A stretch of DNA of 64,000 bases, from assembly GCA_964016885.1 (NCBI GenBank), contig CAXHJY010001242.1, positions 1 to 64,000 on the forward strand, given 5' to 3'. This stretch comes from Eledone cirrhosa. Taxonomy: Eukaryota. Shown here one piece after another: positions 4,903-57,303 of this stretch. The position numbers and the translations under genes are program-made. The notes under the pieces were generated by a model. It did no database searches, was not told where the DNA came from, and saw nothing but the letters and a program-made list of their open reading frames with translations. Position 1 is the stretch's first letter. Each line of letters starts with the position of its first letter.

Positions 4903-4945
4903 GTGGTCCTGATGATTTCTAACAAGAATGAAACGCGTAGATTAC
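4903..4945 (+). ncRNA. Minimal type I hammerhead ribozyme (family 3, inverted copy)
   Basis: gtggtc CTGATGA tttct-aaca-agaat GAAA cgcg TA gattac. Confidence 0.85.
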
Positions 4946-9414: not shown

Positions 9415-11870
9415 ATGAAAAAACAATAATTGGGAACATCTTTAATGAATATACCATTACCTTCTAAGGATGATTTCTTACTTCTTATGATACAAAAAAA
9501 CAACCAATTTATCAGAAGAGTCAGATGGAGGGCCTACCACTTCGATAAAAAAACAAAATGTACTGATAGGAAATATTTGTATGATTTCACTACATATAAA
9601 AATCCACCACACAACTCCTTACTTGAAAACTTTGATAAAGACCTTTTTAATTTAATCAAACACCTCAAATTTAAGAGGTATAAATCTAATTTTCAAAAGG
9701 ACCTTGATTCTACTCTATTGGACCTAAAAAATCTAAAAATATCCATGTTCACTCGGACAAAACTGGAAATCTATATCACATGGATATTGAAAATTACAAT
9801 GAGTTCATATATAAAGAACTCAGGAAAAATTATAGAAAAACAAACAATGCGTCACTTACCAACATCAACAACAAAACACACAGCATAGTGAATAGACTTA
9901 ATATTGAAGATAGAACTGATGCTCTGGCATTGAAAAGACCACACTTCAACCTGAAAGATCATAAATCTAACTTTAACTATAATCCTTCTATAAGGCTTAT
10001 ATGCCCTTCCAAATCTGATATTGGAATAATTAGTAAAAACATTTTAGATAGAGTCATCCCACAACTAAGAAAACATGTTAATTTACCACTCTGGGAAAAC
10101 ACATCCCAGGTAATTAACTGGTTTAATAATATTAGAAATAAATCCTCTGCTTCATTTCTACAATTTGATATAGATAATTATTATTCTTCTATATCACCTA
10201 TTCTCCTGAACAAAGTCTTGATATTTGCTAAAAATAGATCTAACTTAACTTTGGATGACATTAATATTATTACACATGCTAGACTAACACTATTAGAATT
10301 TCAGAATGAATACTGGACCAGAAACAGATATAGTAATCTATTCGATATTACTATGGGCTCAAGCGATTCTGCCCAAATTACTGATCTTGTGGGCCTCTTT
10401 CTTCTTTTTAACATAAATGCTTCCTTTCCCCACCTTAAAGGTGGTTTATATCGTGACGTCTGTCTTCTTCTTTTCAATAACCTTAGCCTCTCAGAGATAG
10501 AAAAAATAAAAAGCTTATTAGAACTATCCCTAAAGACTATTATAGTCTAGATATTACATTTGAAAACACAAGTAAAGTAGTTAATTTCCTAGATATAACA
10601 TTAGACTTATCTACGTGTATCTACCAACCTTACCATAAACCCAACCAAAATTTACACTACATACACTCACAATCTAATCACCCTAAATCTATCCTTAAAA
10701 ACCTTGCATATAATATATCACTTAGAATTTCTAACCTTTCGTCTAACCAAGATGTATTTGATAAAAATGCGACCTTTTATAACGAAGCTCTAGCTAGAAG
10801 TGGCCACAAAAATAGATTAGTATATATACCTTCTACCAATAACACTACAAACATACAACCTAATATTAACAACAAACACCAAATGAAACATACACACCTA
10901 AATGCCACTCACACTATACTCCAAAACACCAACATAAAACCAAATTTCTCTAACTCTTCTAATATAGAGTATAGTAACTCTCAAAAAACTACTCATCCTA
11001 CAACTCTAATAAATGTTAATAGTAAAACTCCTAATAAACAATCTAAAACACCTAAATCAATATATCTAACTAAAAATGTGTGTGGTGAGGTCATTAACAA
11101 TAATTCTCTTAATAAACATCAGGATGCATCCTATAAAAACAATAAACAACATCGAAACCGTAATAGACGAGTTAGTTGGTATAATGCTCCATTTAATTTA
11201 CAAATTAAGGATAATATACCTAAAAAATTCTTTAATATCCTAGAGAAAAACTTCCCGCCAAACCACAAATACCATCAAATTTTTAATAGATCAACGGTTA
11301 AATTCTCCTACTCAACAACCAAAAACATAAAACAAAATATAAGTGCCTATAATGCATATAAATGATAAAAAAAAAACCATGAGTATACTACCAGTACATC
11401 AAACTAACCATAATATCTCCTCAGATACAGGATTCACGAAAAGTTGTAACTGTAGAAACAAGGCAAACTGTCCATTAAAAGGAAATTGCCTTGTTAATAA
11501 CATAGTATATAAATGTAAAGTTAACATTAAGGACTCAATTTATTCATATATAGGAGCTACCTCTAACATATTTAAGGTAAGATTTAATACCCACAAACAT
11601 AGTTTTTAAAATGCCGCACTAGCTAATACAACATCTCTAGCAGAAATAATTAATAGTTATAGAAAGAGGAATATAGATAATGACCTGACCTGGAGTGTGC
11701 TCAAAAGGGCCACCCCTTATCAAAATAGTAGATATGAATGTAGATTATGTTCCCAAGAACTTTTTGAAATAATGAAATCTAAGGATATCCTATTAAATAA
11801 GCGACAGGAATTAATAATATCGTGTAATCATAAACTGAGAAAAACCTTTAAATATTATAAACCTAATTAA
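9415..11870 (+). pseudogene. PLE A RT-GIY-YIG ORF disrupted by stops and frameshifts
   Basis: Fragments 9430-9888, 9780-10550, 10883-11365 and 11343-11609 are collinear with the intact ORF of B. The catalytic YRDD is mutated to YRDV. Confidence 0.92.
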
Positions 11871-12857: not shown

Positions 12858-13000
12858 TCATTATTTCTGAAGACAGCATATATATGTGTAGGTATGTATA
12901 TTCCCTCTGATAGTTTGTATAAATACTGTACATAGATCTATAGAATATGCTTACCAACTCTATCACATATATATCCTAGAAACGATCGTAAAATTGATGA
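12858..13000 (+). ncRNA. Type I hammerhead with long stem II (family 4, A 3' pLTR)
   Basis: Same motif as 8935-9076 with a 1-nt bulge in stem I. Confidence 0.75.
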
Positions 13001-13219: not shown

Positions 13220-13308
13220 CATATATTATATATATATTATATATATATATATATATAAAATATTAAACAAATAATGAACAAACAATTCCTTATATTAAAC
13301 AAAAAAAG

Positions 13309-13463
13309 TTCACTATTTAACGATCGTTTCTAGGGTATATATGTGTTATAATTGGTATGCATATTTAACAGATCTATGTACAAAATTATACAAAATTATA
13401 CAAATTATCAAGATTAAATATACATACCTAACTCATATATACGCCGTCTTCAGAAATAATGAA
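13309..13463 (-). ncRNA. Type I hammerhead with 116-nt stem II (family 4, B inverted arm)
   Basis: Reverse complement of 22519-22673. Confidence 0.78.
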
Positions 13464-14215
13464 GTATATTTATTGATAATAACAACAATTCAAAATATCA
13501 GTTCAAAATTGACCAATGAAAACACAAAGGGTTAAAAAGCAGTTTGGTGTGTGTATATACATGTAAAACCCTACACACATTTTACAATAATGTGTGTATA
13601 ATTTGTATGTGCATACTAAAAAGATGGATGCAAATAAAAAATTTCAAGGTTAATATCTCTGTAAGCTTAATGCGCTGATAAGATACGCAATGATACTTAT
13701 GGAGTCAAGCATATAAATATATTTTTTTCATACTCACACATATCAGTATAATCACACATACATGTGCGTATATATATAAATATACACATAACCACGAACA
13801 CACAAAACACACACACTCCCCCACTCACATTTATATATGTGGATATAAAATCATAAGCAAATAGAAATTAAGTCACTCACATAAACACACTGGTACACAC
13901 ATTTCAAGATCAAGACACAGAAACCAGGTGGGAGGGGGGGGGAGGGGTCAGCACCAGACTGTCAGACCAGACAGCCCAACACAAATGTATCTATAAATTA
14001 TGAAAAACAAAAAATAAAAACAATAAAATATAATACATATAATATAATGTACACACGCATACAGATACACACACACACACACATGCACGCGCACACAGAG
14101 ACATCCACACACACACACACACACACATACCTACACCGTCATACACACACACACACTTACACGAACACACACATACACATACAAAAAGACATAAACACGG
14201 ACACACACACGCGCA

Positions 14216-14266
<51 letters not shown>

Positions 14267-14643
14267 CACATATACATACACATACACACACACATAGACT
14301 CATATATATATACTTACACATACATATACTTATACACAAACATACATATCCCACACCCACACCACCATAAAAACACATACAAACATCCAGATGTATATAT
14401 ATATATATATATACACATATATATATATCAACATACACACACGTACACATATATGTATATATACATACACATATACACACATACACATATATATATACAC
14501 ACACACATAAAATACAGACATGCACATATATATATATATATATATATTTCATTACTCTTATATATACACATAGTATATATACATACACAACCTCACTTAT
14601 ACACATATACACATAAGTTATATTACAATAATAATAAAGAACA

Positions 14644-14674
<31 letters not shown>

Positions 14675-14813
14675 TATACACACATATACACATATACATA
14701 CATACACATACATATACATACATACATACACATACATACATACACCTAAATATAAACATATATAAATACACACATACGAGTAAAGACATATATTCACACA
14801 TAGACACCTATAT

Positions 14814-14855
<42 letters not shown>

Positions 14856-15202
14856 ATATACACACACATACACATACATACACACACATATATACATACA
14901 CATATACACACACGCACACACATACAGACACACATACACACTCACATATATATATATATATATATATATGTGTATGTGAGTGTGCGCAAATACATATATA
15001 TATATACACACACACACACAAACACACACAAACACACACATATGCACACGTGCACACACACACACATATATCACACAGATACGAAGATAAACATACAAAC
15101 AGAGAGACACACAAATATATACAGAACCCACATACACATACATACAAACACGCACATACATACACATACATATATACACACATACATATTCCTATACACA
15201 AG

Positions 15203-15239
<37 letters not shown>

Positions 15240-16826
15240 ATATACATACCACACATTCACATACACGTACATATATAATACATATATATACACATATATA
15301 CATACATATGTATGTACAATCATATATACACACTCAATCTTACATTCATATTTACATGCTCATATATGTATTTTTATATTTAGAAATAAATACCAAAAAA
15401 ACTATATAGACACCCATCTACACATATATTCATACATATACACTTACAAAAACAGATGATAATAGTATGGGGGAAAGGGGGGGTTTGGAGAAGGGGATCA
15501 AAGTAAATATATGTTTCAAGAAACATATAATATTTTCCATATCTTAATTCAATGTATGTTCCTACATATTTTCCGTGCTAGGAAATACGAAATCTATGCA
15601 TCACAAAATAAAAAAGTATACCATTAATCATATGTCAACTAAACCAAAGATAGTCAACATATTGATTTCCAAGGTGTAAATTAGTTAGGTTTATAATATT
15701 TGAAGCAGAATTATGAAGTCAAACAGTAGTAGATTATTAATTACATTATAACTAAATTAAAGTTAATAACGTTATGGTATCAATATTAGGAGATGAATTT
15801 AGTAATAGGGAAAAGAAACCCAAATAAAAATAAAATAAAGTATTACATCGGTAGTAGCATATAAATTATATGTTAACTAAGTTAAAAATTATATATTTAT
15901 TTCAATAGTATATGTTAATTAGTATATGTTAATTAGGTATACAATACATAAAGCAGATATTGTATTTCATCAATAGCATAATATAATTATATGCAAATAA
16001 AAATCAAAATTAATACGCATACATATACATATACATACACATACACATACATATATATATACATACACATATATATATATATATATACATATATATACAC
16101 ATACATACATATATAATCACATAAATATACATACAGATACACATACAACACACACATATACATATACATATAGATATACATATCTTATTCAAAAAATTTG
16201 CACAGAATATATTAACTAGGTATATATCCAAAAACACCTCCCATTCTATGATTACATGACATTCTGTAATTCGTCTGTACAAGGATACTAATTTTAAGCA
16301 AATTAAAATTAAAATTAAAGTTTTAGGTTGATTAAAGCTAAAACCAAATAATAAATATATTTCCAAAATGTATATTAATTAGGTCAATAATACTAAAAAT
16401 TCTTTCTCCGTCATAGGATACATGATATTATGCATACCAATTATAACACATATATACCCTAGAAACGATCGTTAAATAGTGAACTTTTTTTGTTTAATAT
16501 AAGGAATTGTTTGTTCATTATTTGTTTAATATTTTATCTTGACTCTGTATACCGTTTATCTTTCACCGAAATTGGATTTTCATTACATCTCTTCTTTCCA
16601 TGATATCCGGAATACATTGAGTTCTTCATACGGATTGGACACTACCGTAAACTCTTGGTAGATTTATCTACATAATTTTGCTCCTATTTTCACGGAAATA
16701 TTCGTATTTTTGTACTGTATGTGTGTATTAATTTTATATTTATGTATAAACATATATATATGTATGATTTTGTAAACCCATATACATTTAGTTGAGCTCT
16801 TTCAATTGTCCATCATCCATATCACA

Positions 16827-19268
16827 ATGGAAAAACAATATTTAGGAACCTCCTTGAAAAACATACCAATACCTTCTAAGGACGACTTCTTACTCCTTAT
16901 GATTCAGAAAACTAATAATTTTATCAGAAGGGTTAGATGGAGAGCCTACCACTTTGATAGAAAATCTAAACAAGCAGATCGGAAATATATGTATGATTTC
17001 AACACTTACAAGAATCCACCACACAACTTTTTACTTGAAGACTTCGAGAAAGACCTTTTTAATTTAATTAAACACCTCAAATTTAAAAAGTATAAATCCG
17101 TCTTTCAAAAGGACCTTGATTCTACCCTATTGGACCTAAAAAAGTCTAAAAAAATCCATGTCCACTCGGACAAAACTGGTAACTTGTATCATATGGATAT
17201 TGAACATTATAATGAGTTCATATATAAAGAACTCAGAAAAAATTATAAAAAATCTAATAATGCGTCACTCACCAACATCAACAACAAAACACACAACATA
17301 GTAAAAAAACTAAATATTGAAGATAGAACTGAACCTTTGGCATTGAGAAGTCCACACTTCAACCTGAAAGATCACAAATCTAACTTTAACTCTAATCCTT
17401 CTATTAGACTTATATGTCCCTCCAAATCAGATATTGGAATAATTAGCAAAAAAATTTTAGATAGAGTCATCCCACAAATAAGAAAATACGTTATTTTACC
17501 ACTCTGGGAAAACACCTCCCAGGTAATTAATTGGTTTAAAAATATTAGGTGTAAATCTTCTGCTTCTTTCCTACAGTTTGATATAGATAATTATTATTCT
17601 TCTATATCACCCATACTCCTGAACAAAGCATTAATATTTGCTAAAAATAGATCTAATTTAACTTCGGATGACATTAACATTATTACACATGCTGGACAAA
17701 CACTTATTGAATTTCAGAATGAATACTGGACCAGAAACACTTATAGTAATCTTTTTGATATTACTATGGGTTCAAGCGATTCTGCCCAAATTACTGATCT
17801 TGTGGGCCTCTTTCTCCTTTTCAACATAAATGCCTCTTTTCCCCACCTCAAAGGTGGTTTATATCGTGATGACTGTCTTCTTCTTTCTAACAACCTTAGC
17901 CTTTCAGAAATCGAAAAAAACAAAAAGCATATTAGAACTTTCCTTAAAGACTATTATAATCTTAATATTACTTTTGAAAAAACAAGTAAAGTAGTAAATT
18001 TCCTAGATATAACTTTAGATTTAGCTACGGGTATATACCAACCTTACCATAAACCTAACCAAAACTTACATTATATACACTCACAATCTAATCACCCTAA
18101 ATCTATCCTTAAAAACCTTGCATATAATATATCACTTAGAATTTCTAACCTTTCTTCTAACCAAGATGTATTTGATAAAAATGCGACCTTTTATAATGAA
18201 GCTCTAGATAGAAGTGGCCACAAAAATAGATTAGAGTATATACCTTCTACTAAAAATACTGAAAGCATACAGCATAATATTACCAACAAACACCAAATGA
18301 AAAGTACACACCTAAATGCCACCCACAGTATACCCCAAAATACTAAATCTTCTAATATAAAGTATAGTAACCCTCAAAAAACTACTCATCATAAGACTAT
18401 AATAAATATTAATAATAAAACTCCTAATAAAAAAGATAAAACACCTAAATCTACAAATATAACTAAAAATAGTTGTGGTGAGATCATTAACATTATTCCT
18501 CCTAGTAAAAATCATGATACAACATATAAAAATAATAAAAATAATAAACAACATAGAAACCGTAATAGACGAGTTACTTGGTATAATGCTCCTTTTAATT
18601 TACAAGTTAAGGATAATATTGCTAAAAAATTTTTTTATATCCTTGAGAAAAACTTCCCGCCAAACCACAAATACCATCAAATCTTAAATAGGTCTACAGT
18701 TAAATTCTCATATTCTACAACAAATAACATAAAACAAAATATAAGTGCATATAATGCATATAAATGTAAGAAAACTATAAGTATACCACCAGTACATCAA
18801 ATTAACAATAATATCTCCTCAAATACAGAATTAACGAAAGGATGTAACTGTAGAAACAAAACAAACTGCCCATTAAAAGGGAATTGTCTTGTTAACAACA
18901 TAGTCTATAAATGTAATGTTAAAACTAAAGATTCTATTTGCTCATATATAGGAGCTACCTCTAACAATTTTAAGACAAGGTATAATACCCACAAACATAG
19001 CTTTAAAAATGCCGCACTGGCTAATACAACATCTCTAGCAGAAAAAATCAATAGTTATAAAAATAAAAATATAAAATATGATTTGACCTGGAGTGTGCTC
19101 AAAAGAGCCACCCCTTATCAAAATAATAGAAAGGAATGTAGATTATGTTCCCAAGAACTATTTGAAATAATGAAGTCTAGGGATATCTTATTAAATAAAA
19201 GACAGGAATTAATTATATCGTGTAATCATAAACTAAAAAAAACATTTAAATATTATAAACCTAATTAA
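16827..19268 (+). CDS. Naiad-type PLE polyprotein: reverse transcriptase + CxC zinc motif + GIY-YIG endonuclease (813 aa from first ATG)
   Basis: N-terminal SLKNIPIPS, DKT motif, RT motifs FDI..YYSSI, MGSSDSA, YRDD and FLDITL, TWYNAPF, CNCRNKTNCPLKGNC, NIVY...YIG, CRLC, LLNKRQEL..CNH. No internal stop. Confidence 0.93.
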   Translation: MEKQYLGTSLKNIPIPSKDDFLLLMIQKTNNFIRRVRWRAYHFDRKSKQADRKYMYDFNTYKNPPHNFLLEDFEKDLFNLIKHLKFKKYKSVFQKDLDSTLLDLKKSKKIHVHSDKTGNLYHMDIEHYNEFIYKELRKNYKKSNNASLTNINNKTHNIVKKLNIEDRTEPLALRSPHFNLKDHKSNFNSNPSIRLICPSKSDIGIISKKILDRVIPQIRKYVILPLWENTSQVINWFKNIRCKSSASFLQFDIDNYYSSISPILLNKALIFAKNRSNLTSDDINIITHAGQTLIEFQNEYWTRNTYSNLFDITMGSSDSAQITDLVGLFLLFNINASFPHLKGGLYRDDCLLLSNNLSLSEIEKNKKHIRTFLKDYYNLNITFEKTSKVVNFLDITLDLATGIYQPYHKPNQNLHYIHSQSNHPKSILKNLAYNISLRISNLSSNQDVFDKNATFYNEALDRSGHKNRLEYIPSTKNTESIQHNITNKHQMKSTHLNATHSIPQNTKSSNIKYSNPQKTTHHKTIININNKTPNKKDKTPKSTNITKNSCGEIINIIPPSKNHDTTYKNNKNNKQHRNRNRRVTWYNAPFNLQVKDNIAKKFFYILEKNFPPNHKYHQILNRSTVKFSYSTTNNIKQNISAYNAYKCKKTISIPPVHQINNNISSNTELTKGCNCRNKTNCPLKGNCLVNNIVYKCNVKTKDSICSYIGATSNNFKTRYNTHKHSFKNAALANTTSLAEKINSYKNKNIKYDLTWSVLKRATPYQNNRKECRLCSQELFEIMKSRDILLNKRQELIISCNHKLKKTFKYYKPN

Positions 19269-20743
19269 TAACATTATTCTAGAATTTAATTTAATTTAAA
19301 TGTTAGTTAACCTATAAATTTAATTTAATTAATATTTTATTACAGATGAGAAAATATTATGTAATCATTAATTTTGAAAAACCTTTAAATATTACTAATA
19401 TATATTCAGTAATTTAATTTATAGATTAATTTTAACTTATTTTAACCTTTTATTATAATTTTTTAATTTAGTTTAACCTTTTATTATAATTTTTTTTTTT
19501 TTTTTTTTTTTTTTTTATTATAATTCTTTTACAGATAAAATATAACAAAATAATATCATGTATCCTATGACGGAGAAAGAATTTTTAGTATTATTGACCT
19601 AATTAATATACATTTTGGAAATATATTTATTATTTGGTTTTAGCTTTAATCAACCTAAAACTTTAATTTTAATTTTAATTTGCTTAAAATTAGTATCCTT
19701 GTACAGACGAATTACAGAATGTCATGTAATCATAGAATGGGAGGTGTTTTTGGATATATACCTAGTTAATATATTCTGTGCAAATTTTTTGAATAAGATA
19801 TGTATATCTATATGTATATGTATATGTGTGTGTTGTATGTGTATCTGTATGTATATTTATGTGATTATATATGTATGTATGTGTATATATATGTATATAT
19901 ATATATATATATGTGTATGTATATGTATATGTATGTGTATGTGTATGTATATGTATATGTATGCGTATTAATTTTGATTTTTATTTGCATATAATTATAT
20001 TATGCTATTGATGAAATACAATATCTGCTTTATGTATTGTATACCTAATTAACATATACTAATTAACATATACTATTGAAATAAATATATAATTTTTAAC
20101 TTAGTTAACATATAATTTATATGCTACTACCGATGTAATACTTTATTTTATTTTTATTTGGGTTTCTTTTCCCTATTACTAAATTCATCTCCTAATATTG
20201 ATACCATAACGTTATTAACTTTAATTTAGTTATAATGTAATTAATAATCTACTACTGTTTGACTTCATAATTCTGCTTCAAATATTATAAACCTAACTAA
20301 TTTACACCTTGGAAATCAATATGTTGACTATCTTTGGTTTAGTTGACATATGATTAATGGTATACTTTTTTATTTTGTGATGCATAGATTTCGTATTTCC
20401 TAGCACGGAAAATATGTAGGAACATACATTGAATTAAGATATGGAAAATATTATATGTTTCTTGAAACATATATTTACTTTGATCCCCTTCTCCAAACCC
20501 CCCCTTTCCCCCATACTATTATCATCTGTTTTTGTAAGTGTATATGTATGAATATATGTGTAGATGGGTGTCTATATAGTTTTTTTTTGGTATTTATTTC
20601 TAAATATAAAAATACATATATGAGCATGTAAATATGAATGTAAGATTGAGTGTGTATATATGATTGTACATACATATGTATGTATATATGTGTATATATA
20701 TGTATTATATATGTACGTGTATGTGAATGTGTGGTATGTATAT

Positions 20744-20780
<37 letters not shown>

Positions 20781-21127
20781 CTTGTGTATAGGAATATGTA
20801 TGTGTGTATATATGTATGTGTATGTATGTGCGTGTTTGTATGTATGTGTATGTGGGTTCTGTATATATTTGTGTGTCTCTCTGTTTGTATGTTTATCTTC
20901 GTATCTGTGTGATATATGTGTGTGTGTGTGCACGTGTGCATATGTGTGTGTTTGTGTGTGTTTGTGTGTGTGTGTGTATATATATATATGTATTTGCGCA
21001 CACTCACATACACATATATATATATATATATATATATGTGAGTGTGTATGTGTGTCTGTATGTGTGTGCGTGTGTGTATATGTGTATGTATATATGTGTG
21101 TGTATGTATGTGTATGTGTGTGTATAT

Positions 21128-21165
<38 letters not shown>

Positions 21166-21304
21166 ATATAGGTGTCTATGTGTGAATATATGTCTTTACT
21201 CGTATGTGTGTATTTATATATGTTTATATTTAGGTGTATGTATGTATGTGTATGTATGTATGTATATGTATGTGTATGTATGTATATGTGTATATGTGTG
21301 TATA

Positions 21305-21335
<31 letters not shown>

Positions 21336-21712
21336 TGTTCTTTATTATTATTGTAATATAACTTATGTGTATATGTGTATAAGTGAGGTTGTGTATGTAT
21401 ATATACTATGTGTATATATAAGAGTAATGAAATATATATATATATATATATATGTGCATGTCTGTATTTTATGTGTGTGTGTATATATATATGTGTATGT
21501 GTGTATATGTGTATGTATATATACATATATGTGTACGTGTGTGTATGTTGATATATATATATGTGTATATATATATATATATATACATCTGGATGTTTGT
21601 ATGTGTTTTTATGGTGGTGTGGGTGTGGGATATGTATGTTTGTGTATAAGTATATGTATGTGTAAGTATATATATATGAGTCTATGTGTGTGTGTATGTG
21701 TATGTATATGTG

Positions 21713-21763
<51 letters not shown>

Positions 21764-22518
21764 TGCGCGTGTGTGTGTCCGTGTTTATGTCTTTTTGTAT
21801 GTGTATGTGTGTGTTCGTGTAAGTGTGTGTGTGTGTATGACGGTGTAGGTATGTGTGTGTGTGTGTGTGTGTGGATGTCTCTGTGTGCGCGTGCATGTGT
21901 GTGTGTGTGTGTGTATCTGTATGCGTGTGTACATTATATTATATGTATTATATTTTATTGTTTTTATTTTTTTGTTTTTCATAATTTATAGATACATTTG
22001 TGTTGGGCTGTCTGGTCTGACAGTCTGGTGCTGACCCCTCCCCCCCCCTCCCACCTGGTTTCTGTGTCTTGATCTTGAAATGTGTGTACCAGTGTGTTTA
22101 TGTGAGTGACTTAATTTCTATTTGCTTATGATTTTATATCCACATATATAAATGTGAGTGGGGGAGTGTGTGTGTTTTGTGTGTTCGTGGTTATGTGTAT
22201 ATTTATATATATACGCACATGTATGTGTGATTATACTGATATGTGTGAGTATGAAAAAAATATATTTATATGCTTGACTCCATAAGTATCATTGCGTATC
22301 TTATCAGCGCATTAAGCTTACAGAGATATTAACCTTGAAATTTTTTATTTGCATCCATCTTTTTAGTATGCACATACAAATTATACACACATTATTGTAA
22401 AATGTGTGTAGGGTTTTACATGTATATACACACACCAAACTGCTTTTTAACCCTTTGTGTTTTCATTGGTCAATTTTGAACTGATATTTTGAATTGTTGT
22501 TATTATCAATAAATATAC

Positions 22519-22673
22519 TTCATTATTTCTGAAGACGGCGTATATATGAGTTAGGTATGTATATTTAATCTTGATAATTTGTATAATTTTGTATAATTTT
22601 GTACATAGATCTGTTAAATATGCATACCAATTATAACACATATATACCCTAGAAACGATCGTTAAATAGTGAA
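22519..22673 (+). ncRNA. Type I hammerhead with 116-nt stem II (family 4, B 3' pLTR)
   Basis: ttcattattt CTGAAGA ... gtatatatg/catatatac, ggtatgtatattt/aaatatgcatacc ... GAAA cgatcg TT aaatagtgaa. Confidence 0.8.
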
Positions 22674-40110: not shown

Positions 40111-43100
40111 ACATTTGCATTTATCTTGCTTTATGTTCATACGATTTATCACCAAGTCACAACCAATGACCTCAAGAGACAACAAGGTCCGCCATGTCAA
40201 GAAATAACATACATACACACACATGCATCTTTAGGTGTTTAGACTTGTTATGTACTTATATTGACAGAATCTTCCTTAGTATATGGGCAGTTCCCATTAG
40301 TACTATCTTTTGTATTTCTCCTATACGCGGGTTTCCTGGGATTTGCAATAAGTAATCATTAGACCCCTTAGGTATCATTCCTAGAGCGCCTACAACCACT
40401 GGTATTGTTTTAGTTCTCAATTTCCACATGTTTCCAATTTCTATCTCCAGGTGCTTATACTTGCTCAATTTTTCAAATGTTTTTATAGATACATTCTTGT
40501 CTATTGGAACGGACATATCAATTAGCAGGCATACCCTCTTTTTAAAGTCCTTCAGTATTATATCAGGTATATTTGCATCTATTTTTCGGTCTGTTTGGAT
40601 GCTAAAGTTCCACAAGATTGAGATGTGATCTTTTTCAAGTATGGGAGGTGGTTGATGCTCCCACCAATTCTGTTGATGGGGCAGGTCAAAATGCTTACAC
40701 ATTATCCAATGTATGTATTGTGCAGATCTGTCATGCCTGTTTAGGTATTCGGTTGGAGCTATAGGACTGCACATTGAAATTATATGATCAATGGTCTCTG
40801 GTTGTTTTTTTACATACACGGCATAATGGGCTGCATCCATTTTTTATTATGTTGGCTTGGTAATTTTTTGTTGGCAGACACTGATCTTGTGCTGATATAA
40901 TAAGTCCTTCAGTCTCCGATTTCAGTCCAGAGGATGCCAACCACTGATGGTTTAAAGTTTTGTCAACATCAGGATTGTTAGCTCTTTCTGGGTATTTTCC
41001 ATACAGAGGCTTTTCTTGCCATTTCTTAGCCAGTTTCTGTAGCATTTCTTTCTTTGCAGTTACTTTTACCTGCTTTGCTTTTTCCGTGTTTTCCATTTCA
41101 GCAGTAAATGGGACTTCTGAAATGTGTAGTCCATTACTGTATCTTTGTGCATCTTTTGTAATGGAATATGATCTTTTGATGCTTTCGTGTTTCAAAACGA
41201 GTTTGATCATCCAATCATGTGATTCCCTTAGATATGTAGATAATTCAATTGTTGCAGTTTTCAACCCAATATCTAACTGGATTAACCCACGTCCTCCTTC
41301 TTTCCTAGGGAGATATATTATATCTGTATCTGCCTTAGGGTGATGCATTCTGTGCATGGTTAAGAATTTTCGAATTTTTGTATCGAGCCTACGGATCTCT
41401 GTGCTTGACCAGTTGATGACATTGTAACTGTAGGTTACTACTGGTATGGCAAGCGTGTTTATGGCATCGATCCTATTCCTTGCATTAAATTCCGTTCTTA
41501 AGATTGCTCTTACTCTGCGGTAACATTCCTTCCTTATCCTTTCCCTCATTGTCGAGTGCTTGATTCCGTCTCCTTCACAAACACCTAGATACTTGTAAGT
41601 TTCCTCTTGATCAAGTTCTCTTATCACATTCCCCCGATCAAGATTAATGTCTGAACTTTTCAGCAGCTTTCGTCTGGTGAACGTTGCTTTGGTGCATTTA
41701 TCTAGTCCAAACTCCATTTTAATGTCATCACTGAACTGCTCCACAGTGGATAATAGCCCTGGCAATTGTTCATCATTTTTTGCAAATAGTTTCAGGTCAT
41801 CCATGTAGAACAAGTGATTAATGGTTTTGTCATAGACTTTATATCCATGTTTTGTTTCATTGAGCATTTTACTTAATGGTATAATGCGATGCAGAATGAA
41901 AGCGGTGACAAAGAGTCACCCTGAAAAATTCCACAATTAATATTAACTTCTCCAGCTTCCAGTGATTTTGTTCCACTATTCAAAAGGAGTGTCGCTTTCC
42001 ATGTCTTCATACGGAATGACAAGAATCTCCTGACAACGGGAGATATTTTGAAAATCTCTAAACATTTTTCAATCCAACTGTGTGGCAAACTATCGAATGC
42101 TTTTTTATAATCTATCCAGCAATTGATAGATTTTTGTGTCTATTATGACAATCTTCCAGTATCATTTTGTTAACCAAAAGCGGATCCTTAATTTTGTTAA
42201 CCAAAAGCTGATCCAAAAGCTGATATGAGCCTCGTTTACACCCTTTCTGCTAATTGGGAAATAGGTCATTTGTTATCAGGTGGTCATATGTATATTCAGT
42301 TAGGATTGATGGTCGAGCAAGTTAACGGTCTGTAATTTTGGGGATTGTTTGTCTCATCATTCTTCGGAAGCAGGAATGTAATGCCGTTAACTAGCCATGA
42401 TACTATCTTTTCTGGCTCCTTAACTATTTCATTGTAAAGTTGGGCTATCAGCTCATGAGACTCTGTGACGACATTTATCCAAAAATTTGGTATTTTGTCT
42501 TTTCCTGGGGATTACCATTTGCAGGTTTTTCTAAGAGCCAAACGCAACTGTTCAACTGTTATATTTTCCCATATTTGTTCCTCAAGGTGAGCTGTATCTT
42601 TCATTTGTCTGTCTGTCCATGGGGCATGTATATCATGAACATTTTCTTCGGCCCAGATCTTTTCCCAGAATTCTTGCACTTCATCCTTGGGTGGTATTGA
42701 TTTAGCAGTTATTGTTGACTTACCAATTTTTCTGTAGAAGTTTCTTTGGTTGTTTTTGAACATATTATTATCCTTATAGAATGTAGATCGTTTTTCAAAG
42801 CGCCTTATACAAGCAGCTTTGGCCGACACTTTTTGCTTGATTATTTCTATCACCATGTCTATTTCACTTGTTGATTTTGTACTGTATTTTCTTTTCAATT
42901 TTCTAAGTTTAGTTTGTTTAACATGTTCACCTACTTTGTAGTTTGTTAAAATTTCTGTCAGATCGGAGAAGGTTTATTTGGCGATTGATGTTCTCTTGCC
43001 AAGTAGATTTCTTCTGGGAATTCCTTTGTTTTTTTCATTTTCACTCCACATAAGTGAGTGGTGACTTTAGCCGATGCATAATAGAGATGATTTAAATCAG

Positions 43101-44358: not shown

Positions 44359-47300
44359 ACAGTTGCATTTATCTTGCTTTATGTTCATACGAGTTATCAC
44401 CAAGTCACAACCAGTGACCTCAAGAGACAACAAGGTCCGCCATGTTCAAGGAAGAACATAAATACTCACACATGCATCTTTAGTGTTTAGACTTGTGATG
44501 TACTTATATTGACAGAATCTTCCTTAGTATATGGGCAGTTCCCATTAGTACTATCTTTTGTATTTCTCCTATACGCGGGTTTCCTGGGATCTGCGATAAG
44601 TAATCATTAGACCCCTTAGGTATCATTCCCAGAGCGCCTACAACCACTGGTATTGTTTTAGTTCTAAATTTCCACATTTTTCCAATTTCTATCTACAGGT
44701 GCTTATACTTGCTCAATTTTTCAAATGTTTTTATAGATACATTCTTGTCTATTGGAACAGACATATCAATTAGCAGGCATACCCTCTTTTTAAAGTCCTT
44801 CAATATTATATCAGGTCTATTTGCATCTATTTTTCGGTCTGTTTGGATGCTAAAGTTCCACAAGATTGAGATGTGATCTTTTTCAAGTATGGGAGGTGGT
44901 TGATGCTCCCACCAATTCTTTTGATGGGGCAGGTCAAAATGCTTACACATTATCCAATGTATGTATTGTGCAGCTCTGTCATGCCTGTTTAGGTATTCGG
45001 TTGGAGCTATAGGACTGCACATTGAAATTATATGGTCAATGGTCTCTGGTTGTTTTTTGCATACACGGCATAATGGGCTGCATCCATTTTTTATTATGTT
45101 GGCTTGGTAATTTTTTGTTGGCAGACACTGATCTTGTGCGGATATAATCAGTCCTTCAGTCTCCGATTTCAGTCCAGAGGATGCCAACCACTGATGGGTT
45201 AAAGTTTTGTCAACATCAGGATTGTTAGCTCGCTCTGGGTATTTTCCATACAGAGGCTTTTCTTGCCATTTCTTAGCCAGTTTCTGTAGCAGTTCTTTCT
45301 TTGCAGTTACTTTTACCTGCTTTGCTTTTTCTGTGTTTTCCATTTCAGCAGTAAATGGGACTTCTGAAATTTGTAGTCCATTACTCTATCTTTGTGCATC
45401 TTTTGTAATGGAATATGATCTGTTGATGCTTTCGTGTTTCAAAACGAGTTTAATCATCCAATCATGTGATTCCCTTAGATATGTAGATAATCTAATTGTT
45501 GCAGTTTTCAACGCAATGTCTAACTGGATTAACCCACGTCCTCCTTCTTTCCTGGGGAGATATATTCTATCTATATCTGCCTTAGGGTGATGCATTCTGT
45601 GCATGGTTAAGAATTTTCGAATTTTTGTATCGAGCCTACGGATCTCTGTGCTTGACCAGTTGATGACATTGTAACTGTAGGTTACTACTGGTATGGCAAG
45701 CGTGTTTATGGCATCGATCCTATTCCTTGCATTCAATTCTGTTCTTAAGATTGCTTTTACTCTGCGGTAACATTCCTTCCTTATCCTTTCCCTCATTGTC
45801 GAGTGCTTGATTCCGTCTCCTTCACAAACACCAAATATTTGTAAGTTTTTTCTTGATCAAGTTCTCTTATCACATTCCCCCGATCAAGATTAATGTCTGA
45901 ACTCTTCAGCAGCTTTCCTCTGATGAACGTTGCTTTGGCGCATTTATCTAGTCCAAACTCCATTTTAATGTCATCACTGAACTGCTCCACAGTGGATAAT
46001 AGCCCTTGCAATTGTTCATCATTTTTTGCAAATAGTTTCAGGTCATCCATGTAGAACAAGTGATTAATGGTTTTGTCATAGACTTTATATCAATGTTTTG
46101 TTTCATTGAGCATTTTACTTAATGGTATAAGTGCGATGCAGAATAAAAGCGGTGATAAAGAGTCACCCTGAAAAATTCCACAATTAATATTAACTTCTCC
46201 AGCTTCCAGTGATTTTGTTTCACTATTCAAAAGGAGTGTCGTTTTCCATGTCTTCATACTGAATGATAAAAACCTCCTGACAACGGGGGATATTTTGAAA
46301 ATCTCTAAACATTTTTCAATCCAACTGTGTGGCAAACTATCGAATGCTTTTTCATAATCTATGCAAGCAATCGATAGATTTTTGTGTCTATTATGACAAT
46401 CTTCCAGTATCATTTTGTTAACCAGAAGCTGATCCTTACAGCCATATGAGCCTCGTTTACACCCTTTCTGCTCAATGGGAAATAGGTCATTTGTTATCAG
46501 GTGGTCATATGTGTATTCAGTTAGGACTGATGTTAAAATTTTATACATTGTGGTCAAGTAAGTTATCGGTCCGTAATTTTTGGGATTGTTTGTCTCATCA
46601 TTCTTCAGAAGCAGGAATGTGATGCCGTTAACTAGCCATGATGGTATCTTTTCTGGCTCCTTAACTATTTCATTGTAAAGTTGGGTTAAAAGCTCATGAG
46701 ACTCTGTGAAGGCATTTATCCAAAAGTTTTGTATTTTGTCTTTTCCTGGGGATTTCCATTTGCTGGTTTTTCTTAGAGCCAAGCGCAACTGTTCAACAGT
46801 TATATTTTCCCATATTTGTTCCTCAAGGTGAGCTGTATCTTTCATTTGTCTGTCTGTCCATGGGGCATGTATGTTATGAACTTTTTCTTCGGCCCAGATC
46901 TTTTCCAAGAATTCCTGCACTTCCTCCTTGGGTGGTATTGATTTAGCAGTTATTGTTGACTTACCAATGTTTCTGTAGAAGTCTCTTTTGTTGTTTTTGA
47001 ACATATTATTGTCCTTATAGAATCTAGATCGTTTTTCAAAGCGCCTTATACGAGCAGCTTTAGCCGACACTTTGTGCTTGATTATTTCTATCTGCATGTC
47101 TATGTCACATGTTGATTTTATACTGTACTTTTTTTTCAATTTTCTAAGTTTAGTTTGTTTCACATGTTCACCTACTTTATAGTTTGTTAACATTTCTATG
47201 TCAGATCGGAGAAGGTTTATTTGGCGATTGATGTTCTCTTGCCAAGTAGATTTCTTGTGGGAATTCCTTTGTTTTTTCATCTTCACTCCACATAAGTGAC

Positions 47301-48202
47301 TGGTGACTTTAACCGATGCATAATAGAGATGATTTAAATCAGTAATGTTTAGTTTGTTTGTGATGATAATGTTTTTGAGAATTATGTTAGTCTTGTGTAT
47401 TATCTTTTGGTTCTGTTTGGAGTTCTGGATCTTAGGGAGGGTATCTCGTTGCCCCATGTCAGATTCTTTCATTTTCATCCTTCAAGTTGGCAAGTTCATT
47501 CTCATTCAATTCTTTATCATTTACGATCGCATTATTTTCATTTGGAGTTTCATCCTGAGCATGCAGTCCCTCCACTTTTTCGATCCTTTCTTTAATTTGT
47601 ACTGTTGCCAGTGATTCCGCCCCAACCCTGGGATTCGAAGTGTTACAGTTTACCTCGTTTTCACTGACACATGTTTCATTTTCGCTTCGCTGACTTTGTG
47701 CTAATAGCTTGATCTGATCAATTTCTATATCAGTTAGTAACTTTTTTCTTACAATATTTCTTCGTATATTGGCTAGTTTGTTACTGTCAATATAGCCTCT
47801 GTTTTCGGGATGTTTCTTTTTCCAGTTGATATATGTCTGTTCTGTATTCGATGTATTTGATGGGTAGTACATGGCAGTGTAGAAAGCCTCAAGGACTTCT
47901 TTATTATCTTCCCTTGACCATTTTTGTCTCTTTTTCTTTGGATTTCTTGGTGGTGAGCATGGAGGGCCAACAGTAGGAGTATTCCGGTTATGGGAGGTCT
48001 CCAGCTCCGAAGGATGGGAAGGTTTGAACCATTAGCTGATTTTTCGACCGAAGTCTGGTTCCTCTCTGAGGGACGCGGCCCTTTTTTACCCGGGTGACGG
48101 CCGATCCGGTATGAGATTTTATCATTAGACATTTACTTTATTTTGTCGCGTTTTATCCTTATCCGCCAAGGGGTAATCATTTCGTGTTACCACTTCTTCT
48201 TC
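44359..48202 (-). mobile_element. R4/Dong-like non-LTR retrotransposon, apparently full length but frameshifted
   Basis: ORF pieces from ATG 48132 through RT (46090-47478, 45793-46059) to REL (44693-45343, ANRPDII); highly similar to the first copy; (TAA)n on both sides. Confidence 0.92.
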
Positions 48203-48269: not shown

Positions 48270-51205
48270 TTCAATGATGTTCCAGAACAATATAAAAGAG
48301 ATAATTGGCAATTTAGGTTCTGGAACAAAAAAGATAATTAGCAATAAGGGCAGGGGCCCCAGGTTTTCACAGCCTGGGCCCGCTCGTCATCGTGCCATTG
48401 TAATAGAGCCAAACAAGTCATTGAGTCTTGGCTGCTGGAACGTACGGACGCTGCTTGACAGGGATTCCTTGGAGCGTCCTGAACGAAGGACTGCTCTTGT
48501 TGCAAAGGAGCTTCGACGTTACGATCTTGACATCGTGGCTTTATCTGAGACGAGGTTAGCTGGAGATGGTCATCTTACAGAATTTTATGGAGAATATAGA
48601 TTCTTCTGGAAAGGAAGAGATGAAGGAACCAGAAGATAGGCTGGGGTAGGATTTGCTGTTAAGATTGTTCTTGTGAATAAATTAGAAGAATTCCCAGTAG
48701 GGATTAGTGAGCATCTTATGTCCATGAGAATTCCGCTGGACAAAGGAAGTTATGCGACCCTGGTGAGTGTGTATGCTCCAACTATGAATTCTGTCGATGA
48801 AGAAAAAGTGTCCTCTTACAATGCCTTGAAAGGTGTTTTAAGAAATATCCCTCAGGCAGACAAAGTCATCGTGCTTGGTGACTTTAATGCTAGAGTGGGT
48901 AGGGATTTTAACACATGGAATGTAATCGGAATGCATGAGGTGGGAAAGTGTAACAACAACGGTATGCTCCTGCTGCAGATGTGTGAGGAGCTTGATCTGT
49001 CTGTTACCAACACCATGTTTCAACAAAAGAACAAATTCAAGACCACATGAATGCATCTTGCATCTAAGGAATGGCATATTTTGGACTACGTCCTAGTCAG
49101 GATGCGTGACAGACAGGATGTGCAGTGTGTTCGTGCTCTTCGTGGAGCTGAGTACTGGACGGACCACCGCCTGGTACGCGCAAAAGTGAAACTAATCACT
49201 AAACGTAAAATCCGGGCTCTTGGTGTTGCCCTGCCCAAAAGATTGAATGCTGCTCGTCTTAAGGATAAACATGTGAAGAGGACATTGGAAGAAGAGATGC
49301 AGGCTGCAGATCTTAGTGAGGATTGGCCGACCCTTAAAAAGGCGGTTTATGATGTAGGCAGGCGTGTTCTGGGATTGGTGCAGAGAAAACATCAGGACTG
49401 GTTTAATGAGAATGATGTACATATAGAAGACTTGTTGGCTGATAAGAGGCGTGCTCTGTCATGCTACTTGACGTCAAAACCACACGAGAGGAATACGTTG
49501 CATGAGAAACTCAAGGATGTAAAATCACGTGTTAGGCGGAGTCTTTCTCAGATGAAGGATCAGTGGTGGAGTGAGAAGGCTGGTGAGATACAAACTGCGT
49601 CAGATTCCAATAACACAAAGCTGTTGTACAGTCTCTTGCGTGAGGTTTATGGACCGTCTTCTTCTCTGGTGACACCGCTTCGCAGCAAAGATGGCAAAGA
49701 ACTTCTTCGTGACTCACAAGGAATTCTACGAAGGTGGCGAGAGCACTTTGATGATCTTTTAAATCAGCCGTCTGTCGTCAGTGAAGATTTCCTCAATCTC
49801 ATTCCAGAAAGTCCTGTGAAAGTAGCTCTCGCAGAACCTCCGACGCTTGTGGAGGTTGCAGTGGATATCTCGAAATTGAACAGTGGAACGTCTCCAGGTA
49901 TGGATGGCTTACATGCTGAGCTCCTGCAATATGGTGGTGAGAGACACCTGCAACAACTTCACTATTTGTTTGGCAGGATATGGGCTAATGAATCCGTACC
50001 TGAGGACTGGAGAGATGCAATGGTGGTCTTGTACAAGGGAAAGGGTAACAGGAATGATTGTGGGAACTAGAGAGGTATATCATTGCTTTCTGTCGTAGGG
50101 AAAGTTTTATGTAGGGTGCTTCTGGACCGTCTGCTGACACACAATGCAGATTGTGTTCTTCCTGAAAGTCAAGCTGGTTTTCGTGCTGGACGCGGCATAC
50201 TGATATGATCTTCTCAGCTAGACAGCTCCAGGAGAAGTGCATGGAACAAGGTTTGGATCTGTATCAGGTTTTTGTCGATCTGACAAAAGCTTTCGATACT
50301 GTTAACAGAGATGCATTATGGAAGGTTCTCCAGAAACTTGGTTGCCCTGATAAGTTCCTTGCTTTAGTTAGGTCTTTCCATGACGACATGAAGGCTTGGG
50401 TTAATGTCGGAGGTAACATGTCGCAGCCTATCTCAGTAAAAAATGGAGTGAAACAGGGGGATATTCCAGCACCGTCCCTGTTTGCCATATACTTTGCAAT
50501 GATTTTCTGTATTGAATTCAGGAATTGCGAGCACGGTGTTTGCATCCGATATCGAACCTCAGGCAGCATATTTAACATCAGGCGTTTTGCTGCAAAGACA
50601 AAAGTATTTACATCAATCATAAGCGACCTCTTGTATGCGGATGATTGCGATCTTGTAGCGCACACAGATATGCAGCACATTTTGAATGCATTTTCTGACG
50701 CTTGCACTGCCCTAGGATTGACTGTCGGTCTCAAGAAAAACGTCGTCATGTACCAACCTGCCCCTGGTAAGCAGTACACTGTACTAAATATCTATGTGTA
50801 TGGTAAACGACTTGGAGTGGTTGATCAGGTTGTCTACCTGGGAAGCACTGTCAATCGATACAGCAACCTTGATAGTGAAATCTCACTTAGGATTAGGAAA
50901 GCAAGTGAATGTTTTGGTTGCTGACTCTGTGCAAGATATTTCAGATCATTGGCTGGGCTAAAAAGCCACATTCGATCGCAGCGCTGTTATATATGTATAT
51001 GTATATTATTATTGTTGTTGTTGTCGTTATTATTATTGTTATTATTATTATTATTATTGTTATTAATATATCTGTATGTATATGTATGTGTATGTATATA
51101 TGTGTGTGTATGTATGTGTGTATATATGTATATATTTTTTTTTTCTCGTGCAATGGCGATACTCGATAACGAGGGGGCAGCCATCATGTATGTATGTATG
51201 AATGT
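48270..51205 (+). mobile_element. RTE-clade LINE (APE + RT), degenerate, with internal deletion between RT and the C-terminal zinc finger
   Basis: GCWNVRTL, IVALSETR, VLGDFNARVG, LDY, TDH (APE); DLTKAFD, GVKQGD, LLYADD (RT); abrupt jump at ~50920 to FRSLAGLKSHIRS; tail actcgataacgagggggcagccatc(atgt)n. Confidence 0.92.
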
Positions 51206-53828: not shown

Positions 53829-53941
53829 ATCCACTTTTTTCCAGGCAATGCAAGGATATTATATTAATATTAAAAATATTTATCAACAAATAAGTTAAAT
53901 AAATAATAATGAATAGGAAGAAGTGCAGAGAGGAAAAAGTA

Positions 53942-54001
53942 ATCAGGGTGGGAATCGAACCCACGACCGGTCCGCTGCTCTACTGACTGAGCTACCTGAC
54001 C
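53942..54001 (-). pseudogene. tRNA-like sequence lacking the anticodon loop (tRNA pseudogene or SINE head)
   Basis: Reverse complement ggtcagg-ta-gctc agtcagta gagc-agcggacc-ggtc-gtggg ttcgatt cccac-cctgatt: acceptor, D and T arms pair; followed by TTTTT. Confidence 0.7.
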
Positions 54002-54646: not shown

Positions 54647-55636
54647 TGCATATATTCCTATGGACTATGTGTAGGCTTCTACATAACCTGGACATTATTT
54701 TCCCAACTTGTAGAAAACTTATAATGAAACGATCGTTTGGAAAGAGGGATGTATTTATTTGTGTCTCATATAAAATAATACAACTGGCTATCCGCAAAAT
54801 ACGTATAGTTAGCACCCCAAACGTATAATTGGGGTTATACTAAGGTATATCCTAATGTTTGTTGAATGAGACGGAAGTCGGTCGGAGTATTGCTTAAAGC
54901 TTTCTCTGTTAATGTATTAAATATTATATTCTTGAATTGACCAGAGATGAAAATTTCCAAATATTTTTTAGGTATGACTTTCTTTATTTATTCTTTGTAT
55001 GAAATATTGATTGTTTTTCCAGTATCTTGTCTCTGTTTTTAGCCTGAGAAAATAACTATATGCATGTATAAATAATACATGCATTGATATAATTTTTTAT
55101 ATACAATTGAGTTCTTCACGCAAGGTTAAAATTCTTGATAGAATTAATTGACCTGCGTGCATATTATTTAATCTTTTTATGTTTTGCGATGACCTCCCCT
55201 TCCCGCTTGGTGACGGTGTGATATTCCTCTTTGTGAGACTGCTGGAATTTCAAATTTGGCGGTATTCTAGCACTGACGGGTACCATCGCTGAATGTTAAT
55301 ATCGGTAGGTTTTTTTTATATCGATATTGTTGGGTATCCACTGATGATTTATAAGTGCCCACCTGCATATATTCCTATGGACTATGTGTAGGCTTCTACA
55401 TAACCTGGAGATTATGTTCCCAACTTGTAGAAAACTTATAATGAAACGATCGTTTGGAAAGGGGTATGTATTTAATTGTGTCTTATATAAAATAATACAA
55501 CTGGTTATCCGCAAAATACGTAGAGTTAGCACCCAAACGTATCATTGGGGTTATACTAAGGTATATCCTAATGTTTGTTGAGTGAGACGGAAGTCGGTCG
55601 GAGTATTGCTTAAAGCTTTCTCTGTTAATGTATTAA

Positions 55637-55638
<2 letters not shown>
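54647..55638 (+). mobile_element. Non-coding pLTR-bounded element (275-bp direct repeats 54647-54921 and 55364-55638, period 717 bp), hammerhead family 6
   Basis: Direct repeats, (TA)n on both flanks, no credible ORF. Confidence 0.78.
55337..55458 (+). ncRNA. Type I hammerhead with branched stem II (family 6)
   Basis: tcca CTGATGA t-ttataagt [cctgcatata/tatgtgtagg hairpin][ttctaca/tgtagaa hairpin] acttataa-t GAAA cgatcg TT tgga. Confidence 0.72.
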
Positions 55639-55682
<44 letters not shown>

Positions 55683-55923: not shown

Positions 55924-56110
55924 GTGGTGGCTTGGCAGTATCGGTAGAGAGTCGGACGCCATATTTTGACGCATAGAGTTACGGCCCTTGCCATTCTGAG
56001 TTCAAATCCCGCCGAGGTTAACTTTGCCTTTCATCCTTATGGGGTCGATAAAATAAAATACCAGTAATACACTGGGTATTTGCTGGCCTTGTGCCAAAAG
56101 TAGAAACAAT
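55924..56110 (+). mobile_element. tRNA-derived SINE with Meta-domain-like core
   Basis: tggcagtatcggtagag, gagttcaaatccc B box, gcctttcatccttatggggtcgataaaataaaataccag. Confidence 0.8.
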
Positions 56111-56140
56111 TATTGATAATTATTGATTAATTCATTCTAT

Positions 56141-56549: not shown

Positions 56550-56750
56550 GGGCGGTGGATTGGGTGGATTGGCAGTACTTGTATAGGGTCGGACGCCATG
56601 CTTTGAAGCATAGAGTTACCTCCCTTTATGATCTGAGTTCAAATCCCGCCGAGGTTAACTTTGCGTTTCATCCTTACGGGGTCGATAAAATAAAGTACCA
56701 GTAATGCACTGGGATAATTGCTGGGTTTGTGCCACAAGTAGAAACAAGTA
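56550..56750 (+). mobile_element. tRNA-derived SINE with Meta-domain-like core
   Basis: Same family as 55924-56110. Confidence 0.8.
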
Positions 56751-57303
56751 TTTTAACTAGCATCGTGCGTTGCTAAAGAAAGCAAGCGGCACAAACCTGA
56801 GCGTTTGTTATGCATTACAATTCATCAACCGAGATGTTTTGTCCGCTGGAACAAAAGAAGTTAATTTACTATGGAGAATGTTCACGAAATTGGAGGAAAA
56901 GAAAACTAATTAAAAAGAATGTACATGTTGCGCAGTGTTAAGAGAGTTATCGAAAATTCATCACGAGTCTCCCTATTACATACTGACCAATGAATAAGAA
57001 AGCTTATTCTGAATACTTTTCATAAACACACGATTTAAACCACTAGAGTTATCATTGATATGGAAAGCATCAGAAAATGAGTAAAACATAATCAACTAAC
57101 AATGAAGGGACTCATACATTGTAAGATACAACCGTGTATTTCTAAAAGCTGGGTGTACTCGATTAGGTTTTCACCAAGCATATGCAGTATATGGTGCTAG
57201 GGACAACATAGGACTTTGTTTTTCCCCTCTCTAACTATCTCATATACATAGGCCGAAACATCCAATCATACAGAATTGCTTGCACACACTCACAATTTGT
57301 ATG

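Follow-up and report, generated by a model that had tools for sequence, protein, structure and literature searches.

The insertion at 54647..55645 (+) in the window, by which we mean the whole 64-kb contig CAXHJY010001242.1 of the 3.0-Gb Eledone cirrhosa genome, is a 5'-truncated, 1.4-unit copy from a large ORF-less lineage of repeats whose hammerhead carries a branched stem II. We think it rather likely that this lineage is a retrozyme-like, non-coding repeat of Penelope type whose hammerhead arm is branched; reverse transcriptase/endonuclease proteins of Hydra-clade elements would copy it into TA microsatellites, the template being an RNA for which cutting by paired hammerheads is predicted and circularisation is probable. 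A non-autonomous, ORF-less Penelope-type repeat was already proposed in the initial annotation of this DNA, and its tandem structure, fixed 3' end and TA target support that part of the proposal.

The insertion is non-coding and flanked by (TA)n tracts. Its 5' repeat, or pseudo-LTR (54647..54923, +), is cut off inside hairpin A of the hammerhead, is missing CUGAUGA as well as the 5' strand of both stem I and stem II, and retains an upstream half-site (54726..54741, +) made of GAAA, the palindromic stem III and the 3' strand of stem I, with a predicted cut after 54737. From there the predicted cleavage-to-cleavage unit of 717 nt runs to the second cut (54738..55454, +), and a conserved tail of ~190 nt (55455..55645, +) leads to a fixed 3' end, at which reverse transcription presumably starts. 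The direct repeats of the locus lie 717 nt apart, as first annotated, with 5.1% mismatch over 292 sites. The unit is indeed ORF-less, its longest stop-free frame being 81 codons, and the window copy bears private mutations. Two consecutive complete hammerheads, the criterion of Li et al., are absent at this locus, where the 5' repeat has no CUGAUGA.

The complete type I hammerhead lies at 55337..55458 (+) and comprises a 4-bp stem I, CUGAUGA, a 95-nt stem II insert, GAAA, a palindromic stem III and GUU, so that CUGANGA, GAAA and NUH are all present in type I order together with three helices. Stem I pairs TCCA (55337-55340, +) with TGGA (55455-55458, +), which agrees with the 4 bp reported earlier; the core CTGATGA occupies 55341-55347 (+), and GAAA at 55443 (+) is followed by CGATCG and by a predicted cut after the GUU at 55454. 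The branched stem II (55349..55441, +) consists of an 8-bp basal helix that joins TTATAAGT (55349-55356, +) to ACTTATAA (55434-55441, +), a linker GCCCA (55357-55361), hairpin A (55362..55392, +; 10 bp including two G-U) and hairpin B (55394..55432, +; 7 bp). It is closed by a U-U mismatch (55348/55442) that had gone unmentioned. The basal helix and the two hairpins had been described with these same lengths, and both sequence and folding confirm them: for the 95-nt insert the folding energy is -29.7 kcal/mol, whereas 200 shuffles give -14.8 +/- 2.6 (z -5.72, 0/200 as good). The lowest-energy fold of a single hammerhead buries the core (-36.1 versus -29.9 kcal/mol for the open-core form). The branched arm is well supported as a structure, while ribozyme activity is predicted.

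The locus belongs to an abundant family. A DNA search of the genome gave 3,034 candidates, 40 of which were scored, with identities of 90-100%. Exact patterns were matched 263 times for the core of the window subfamily, 2,507 times for a core covering most of the lineage and 3,878 times for the 3' motif, each with 0 matches in the control. Among 123 mapped copy segments, 105 share a common 3' position and mostly run into (TA)n; the same 3'-end pattern was found at 30 loci picked by the 3' motif only. These 105 copies span 313 to 1349 nt, in a sample chosen for interior or hammerhead content that under-counts short copies, and 39 of them, seamless, exceed 720 nt, a share raised by the bias towards long copies. 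That the 5' repeat starts within stem II, as the initial annotation pointed out, holds at this locus but is not a general trait; given the variable copy lengths and 5' ends, it is ordinary chance truncation. Nor is the 717-bp period fixed across the family: within the window subfamily it falls at 712-726 nt for 14 of the 17 periods measured, and two of the 17 are exactly 717. Copies diverge from the majority sequence by 3.0% on average, and 103 of 122 distinct ones fold as a basal helix with two hairpins. In 30 insertions, the two repeats of one insertion agree at 87/99 diagnostic sites, against 50% between insertions, and so both must stem from one template. Four tandem pairs with complete hammerheads occur among the 100 matches listed of the 263. 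Partial tandems (pseudo-LTRs), a fixed 3' end, 5' truncation and a microsatellite target are all Penelope-like traits. Inverted neighbouring copies were seen in 3 of 190 upstream regions. One further candidate motif, taken from a loose end in contigs of one sample, had no genomic match.

An abundant short repeat interrupts some family members and has two copies of its own in the window (55926-56114, 56563-56752). A tRNA-like match above the Rfam threshold lies at 53940-54001 (-) and was not called by ARAGORN. The tRNA-like match and the abundant short repeats are probably SINEs.

Sister sequences extend the lineage further. One sister subfamily has a period of ~990 nt, 70-80% identity and 843 pattern matches, and includes tandem hammerhead pairs and one three-unit array; a looser pattern brought in many more sisters (848 matches), with periods of ~690 to 770 nt. 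All 40 of the sisters fetched align to the window unit and none of the 40 stands in line behind an ORF. The relatives are homologous along the whole unit, at 70-93% identity.

For covariation we aligned 60 hammerheads, seven from the window subfamily and 53 from sisters; of the 59 distinct sisters, one deleted copy and five that were near-duplicates or tandem partners had been set aside. Over these 60 the branched structure has 94.4% of its cells paired, against 36-49% in slid controls, and 12 of its 34 pairs change on both sides; there are 130 double-change cells, a number reached in 0/500 shuffles. Since relatedness inflates the shuffle control, states were mapped on a tree built from the 175 nt downstream of the hammerhead, on which the double changes are mostly single events spread over different branches. 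Hairpin A has both-side changes in 6 of its 10 pairs (U-A/C-G twice, G-C/G-U/A-U stepwise, C-G/U-A and A-U/G-C). Elsewhere, the top pair of the basal helix goes from A-U or G-U to U-A, the base of stem II from G-C to U-U in two clades, and stem I shows U-A to C-G; in stem III both inner pairs double-change, with the palindrome retained as GATC, AATT or GGCC. Hairpin B hardly varies (96.7% paired): it has one double change, in one sequence, and an inner pair goes from A-U to U-A in five sequences. Hairpin B and most of the basal helix being invariant, they offer conservation with little covariation. RNAalifold recovered stems I and III and both hairpins and did not predict the AU-rich basal helix. 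The alternative of an unbranched arm patterned after Hydra B (hairpin 64-82, helix 41-111) was rejected, three of its seven pairs being broken in more than half of the sequences. Covariation across genomic copies, the check suggested by the initial annotation, is therefore present, strong in hairpin A, which is thereby well established, and weak in hairpin B. The evidence for the junction comes from helices that are conserved but covary little.

These results bear on the reading that the locus is a one-off deleted Penelope fragment or a passive satellite, its branched fold an accident of AT-rich sequence. No Rfam hammerhead family matches in the window at E <= 1, and the private mutations of the window copy could also speak for such a fragment. 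Against it stand thousands of dispersed copies with one 3' end, the covariation, and relatives that are 70-93% identical across the whole unit; no ORF remnant was found in the interior, so that neither a deleted Penelope ORF nor a form unique to this locus, the outcome that the initial annotation named as fatal to its proposal, describes what we see. These findings already speak decisively against this reading, which we consider very improbable. Because hammerhead searches assume a short stem II, Rfam misses the branched motif and thousands like it here.

Inspection of Hydra loci also revealed a second ORF-less, TA-targeting repeat family (example hammerhead at L257:1010-1136, +). Its hammerhead carries an 84-nt stem II insert of the same branched topology and a CTCGAG stem III, and has 702 exact pattern matches genome-wide. 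The units are ORF-less and 839 nt or 1015 nt long, the longer form having an insertion, and the 3' end lies ~150 nt past the cut site, in TA. Two pairs of its basal helix double-change (24 of 26 sequences aligned, two being left out). No homology between the two branched families was detected by nhmmer (E >= 3) or covariance model (E 0.2-0.6). That paired mutations keep the branched arm in two unrelated families indicates that it has a function.

The linker before hairpin A is complementary to a G-rich strand just upstream of stem I (55332..55335, +). This candidate pseudoknot partner reads GGGT in the window copy and GGGC in most of its relatives; GGGC/GCCC is 91% paired in the first lineage, and the counterpart in the second family is GGC with GCC. 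The pairing was sought after the fact, prompted by PMC3088659 (Perreault et al., 2011), which in the part available reports that ~40% of hammerheads join stems I and II through base pairing and that U10.1-U11.1 is tolerated. The pseudoknots of that paper engage a loop or tail close to a short stem II; the strand engaged in the present arm would belong to a junction and lie 8-9 bp away from the core. The family alignment holds no double change in this pairing (21-53/500 shuffles as high), no support from covariation was found in the second family, and a 4-bp match between such strands arises by chance in 7-10% of trials. As family-level covariation is absent, we treat the pseudoknot as hypothetical.

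As to the proteins that mobilise the repeat, the coding element of the same window, which the initial annotation called Naiad B, offers a comparison. Its uninterrupted ORF (16827..19268, +; 813 aa) has RWR at aa 37, DKT at 115, CNCRNKTNC at 673, CRLC at 771 and CNH at 799, with GIY-YIG at aa 693-709, C-terminal. This is the Hydra feature set as defined in section 11 of PMC8557442 (RWK-like, DKT, CxCx5C, CxxC, CxH, no GxKF/Y, a single short ORF), and the Naiad features, an N-terminal GIY-YIG endonuclease and DKA, were not found in the ORF. By eye it can be likened to Hydra-1_Obim; it has no Pfam match, and 117 relatives at E <= 1e-20 were found among 7,994 candidates scored. Judged by its motif set, then, the element belongs to the Hydra clade and not to Naiad, and we refer to it as Hydra B. 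Broken copies of the ORF lie at 7041-8818 (-) and 9415-11867 (+). It is an example of the likely helper class and a candidate partner. A helper-ORF survey of the genome, which covered Hydra-type ORFs and scored 150 of 54,509 first-look candidates, distinguished no fewer than five Hydra-type families on the basis of their endonuclease sequences.

The dependence on Naiad proposed in the initial annotation finds no support in these data, and we regard it as improbable. According to PMC8557442 (File S1), cephalopods are among the sources of Naiads, and these too insert at (TA)n. However, the element that links repeat and coding sequence is Hydra; Naiads are described, in the accessible part of PMC8557442, as having an N-terminal endonuclease and no canonical hammerheads, those of cephalopods being called remnants; and the window hammerhead has canonical type I order and Hydra-like details. 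Nearly all Hydra elements target (TA)n according to the same File S1, and in many Hydra hammerheads of File S2 a U-U lies at the base of stem II and stem I has 4 bp. The helpers of the repeat are thus probably Hydra-clade proteins.

The stem III palindrome had been taken as common to the repeat and the neighbouring element. The sequence itself is shared, GAAACGATCGT being found also at 16462 and at five other places in the coding element, but since CAATTG or CGGCCG takes its place in sister subfamilies, it says little about partnership. The stem I arms mismatch, and on this reasoning the idea that the repeat and Hydra B RNA cleave each other through the palindrome was rejected. Another shared element is a 16-nt motif, TTGAGTTCTTCA-ACG (55105..55120, +), that recurs in the pseudo-LTR of the Hydra B/D families; it is significant in 4 of 6 units, and 1 in 300 shuffles of the window unit scored as high. 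Longer homology to the Hydra B untranslated region was not found, pairwise scores not exceeding shuffles and a profile match reaching 3.6 bits, and derivation of the repeat from Hydra B untranslated regions was rejected on the shuffle result. No 3' homology with an autonomous family was detected, the shared part being the internal 16-nt motif only, and no parent ORF stood in line with a branched hammerhead among 30 + 20 Hydra loci and 190 distinct upstream regions.

Long stem II arms are common in the coding families as well. Long-stem hammerheads gave 9,397 genome matches versus 9 in the control, and most of the 100 listed are of the Hydra B type. Arms of the Hydra B/D coding families measure 97-118 nt and are mostly unbranched rods by prediction; other Hydra families in the genome have short or medium stem II arms. 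In the window, Hydra B hammerheads with 9-bp stems I and with 105-116-nt arms that are unbranched rods by prediction lie at 8944-9067, 12867-12990 and 22529-22663 (+) and at 13453-13319 and 5806-5683 (-); Rfam missed these long-arm hammerheads in the window. Hydra B copies end at two points, ~65 or ~200 nt past the cut site. This offset exceeds the 30-40-nt tail described for other Penelope elements (L031-L068, window), and inverted pairs often combine one ~65-nt and one ~200-nt end. A long, microsatellite-rich inverted duplication, recognisable by mirror Rfam matches and mirror hammerheads, surrounds the Hydra ORF (~13300-16400 and 19540-22660). At L266:1934-4345 and L121, copies of the repeat and 5'-truncated ORFs of a single Hydra family lie in head-to-head orientation; the small hammerhead of this Hydra family has a CAATTG stem III, as in the 990-nt sister. 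Co-insertion and independent insertion into the same TA tract fit these junctions equally well.

On the mechanism that we favour, a tandem copy would first be transcribed. In the monomer, a stem III that is palindromic and leaves a 2-nt loop is unable to close, so two copies pair (PMC4209133, in the part available), and the duplex predicted through stem III has -12.4 kcal/mol. In the double-hammerhead geometry each core cuts the site of its partner. Two hammerheads of the repeat would accordingly pair through their palindromes, each core cutting the GUU of the other, probably slowly or with the aid of proteins. The resulting ~720-nt monomer would then be ligated into a circle, for which we see slightly better than an even chance; otherwise the uncleaved multimer would serve as template. 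A Hydra protein would nick (TA)n, and reverse transcription, beginning ~190 nt past the cut site, would cross the junction for up to about two units in the window subfamily and three in a sister. Having one core only, the window locus could cut its upstream half-site and not the downstream one and, with no second core, would not release a 717-nt monomer unaided. The 717-nt monomer of the initial annotation thus stands as a prediction at the level of the family, in which source copies with two full hammerheads exist, though not for this locus with its single catalytic core, nor as a constant length, the period being variable. The branched arm would most likely brace the ribozyme. Pairing of the linker GCCC with GGGC upstream of stem I may replace the usual loop-loop contact, a possibility that we rate somewhat below even, and the stem II hairpins may bind protein.

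An internal, fixed-point start of reverse transcription has been shown for the anole Penelope element, for which hammerhead cleavage is not needed for insertion in vitro (PMC11167929). For Xenopus retrozyme dimers, one of nine cleaved, according to the accessible part of bioRxiv 10.64898/2026.07.22.740005. We counted 5' junctions by eye at 31 distinct loci among the 100 rows listed, of 317 in which a TA junction lies near the cut site: three fall exactly at the cut site, 12 within 3 nt of it, and 13 at upstream TA-like microhomology. No sharp peak of 5' ends at the cut site was seen at these 31 loci; among the mapped copies, three long ones start at most 5 nt from it. Because reverse transcription usually passes the cut site, the template must be religated or uncut. 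This leaves room for a Hydra-driven element that uses an uncleaved linear multimer as template, with rare cutting and with the arm mainly as a protein-binding or folding element, a reading that we hold to be unlikely, albeit by far the most serious of the alternatives. In its favour, most cDNAs cross the cut site, and microhomology exceeds the site itself as a junction (13/31 versus 3/31); the monomer misfolds in prediction, and haplotype agreement within insertions fits a linear multimer as well as a circle. On the other hand, core, NUH, stem I and stem III are kept or compensated across subfamilies 20-30% apart, the core being partly fixed by the search pattern; a linear multimer should become shorter with every round, whereas seamless copies that exceed a unit are frequent (39/105 above 720 nt), and a sister family holds a three-unit array. 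As copies longer than a unit regenerate without loss from a circle, a circular template is slightly favoured.

Many parts of this system have been published already, namely retrozymes, their link to Penelope, dimeric cleavage, the short stem I, the U-U pair and the palindromic stem III. The metazoan non-LTR retrozymes (PMC7229834; bioRxiv 10.64898/2026.07.22.740005, by Li, Clavereau and Pollet), so far as these sources were accessible, similarly have non-coding AT-rich tandem units and a type I hammerhead with a weak palindromic stem III. The axolotl HHR_Amex2 hammerhead shares the U-U stem II base, family lengths range over 51-972 bp, and mobilisation by Penelope-like elements has been proposed. 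Unlike them, the present repeat has a 95-nt branched domain in stem II and occurs mostly as dispersed, 5'-truncated (TA)n insertions with a fixed 3' end in place of long arrays, and its RNA circles are a prediction from DNA. With the Hydra-clade C-terminal EN+ elements, as the consulted portion of PMC8557442 presents them, it has in common the (TA)n target, pseudo-LTR, 4-bp stem I and short stem III, and the Hydra core CUGAUGAU...UGAAA with U-U matches that of the repeat; in all Hydra rows of File S2, stem II has 3-7 bp and its loop 3-10 nt, from which the ORF-less repeat differs. The Penelope minimal hammerheads (Cervera and de la Pena, 2014, PMC4209133; see also Lunse et al., 2017, through the review PMC6765202, for minimal or palindromic-stem-III hammerheads) likewise have a 4-5-bp helix I and a palindromic helix III; the available text of PMC4209133 gives them cleavage as dimers with low activity, proposes circle-templated copying beyond one unit, and describes an unbranched helix II of 7-8 bp, unlike the one here. 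Non-autonomous Chlamys elements such as MRC1 (PMC8557442, same portion) are also ORF-less and Penelope-type, with pseudo-LTRs and head-to-tail copies; they are mostly hammerhead-less and their 3' end resembles that of an autonomous partner, whereas the searches for the present repeat yielded no such partner. Within the literature covered, chiefly openly accessible papers and Li et al. in its main text, we found no report of a stem II that branches in a natural hammerhead.

As a bolder and rather doubtful idea, the two branched families may represent a hammerhead subtype that arose at least twice in non-coding parasites of Hydra elements, with a linker-paired three-way junction, protein-binding hairpins and helper-gated cleavage and circularisation, in effect a natural ribozyme switched by protein, its genomic copies being fossils of rolling-circle reverse transcription on circles of 0.7-1.0 kb. 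The literature that we could access treats both the function of Penelope hammerheads and the way in which animal retrozymes become mobile as open questions. The family offers a short ORF-free substrate, a mapped copying start, many natural variants and candidate helpers in the same genome, which makes both the choice between circular and linear template and the function of stem II directly testable.

The window and other loci hold further motifs. A short tandem and inverted repeat contains a small hammerhead (4455-4476 and 4765-4786, -; 4909-4941, +) whose stem II has a U-U at its base and whose stem III reads CGCG. A hammerhead-like motif with a ~30-nt stem II occurs at 2430 and 28055 (+) and at 26513 (-), and again at L254:6888 (-), where it lies just upstream of a Hydra ORF and is probably the pseudo-LTR of that family. 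LINE-type reverse transcriptase ORF fragments (Pfam RVT_1) are found at 40788-41915 and 46090-47481 (-) and at 50166-50924 (+). Short hammerhead-like motifs at L262:2369-2441 and L276:2094-2165 have a palindromic stem III and altered first core letters (CCGAAGA, TCGATGA).
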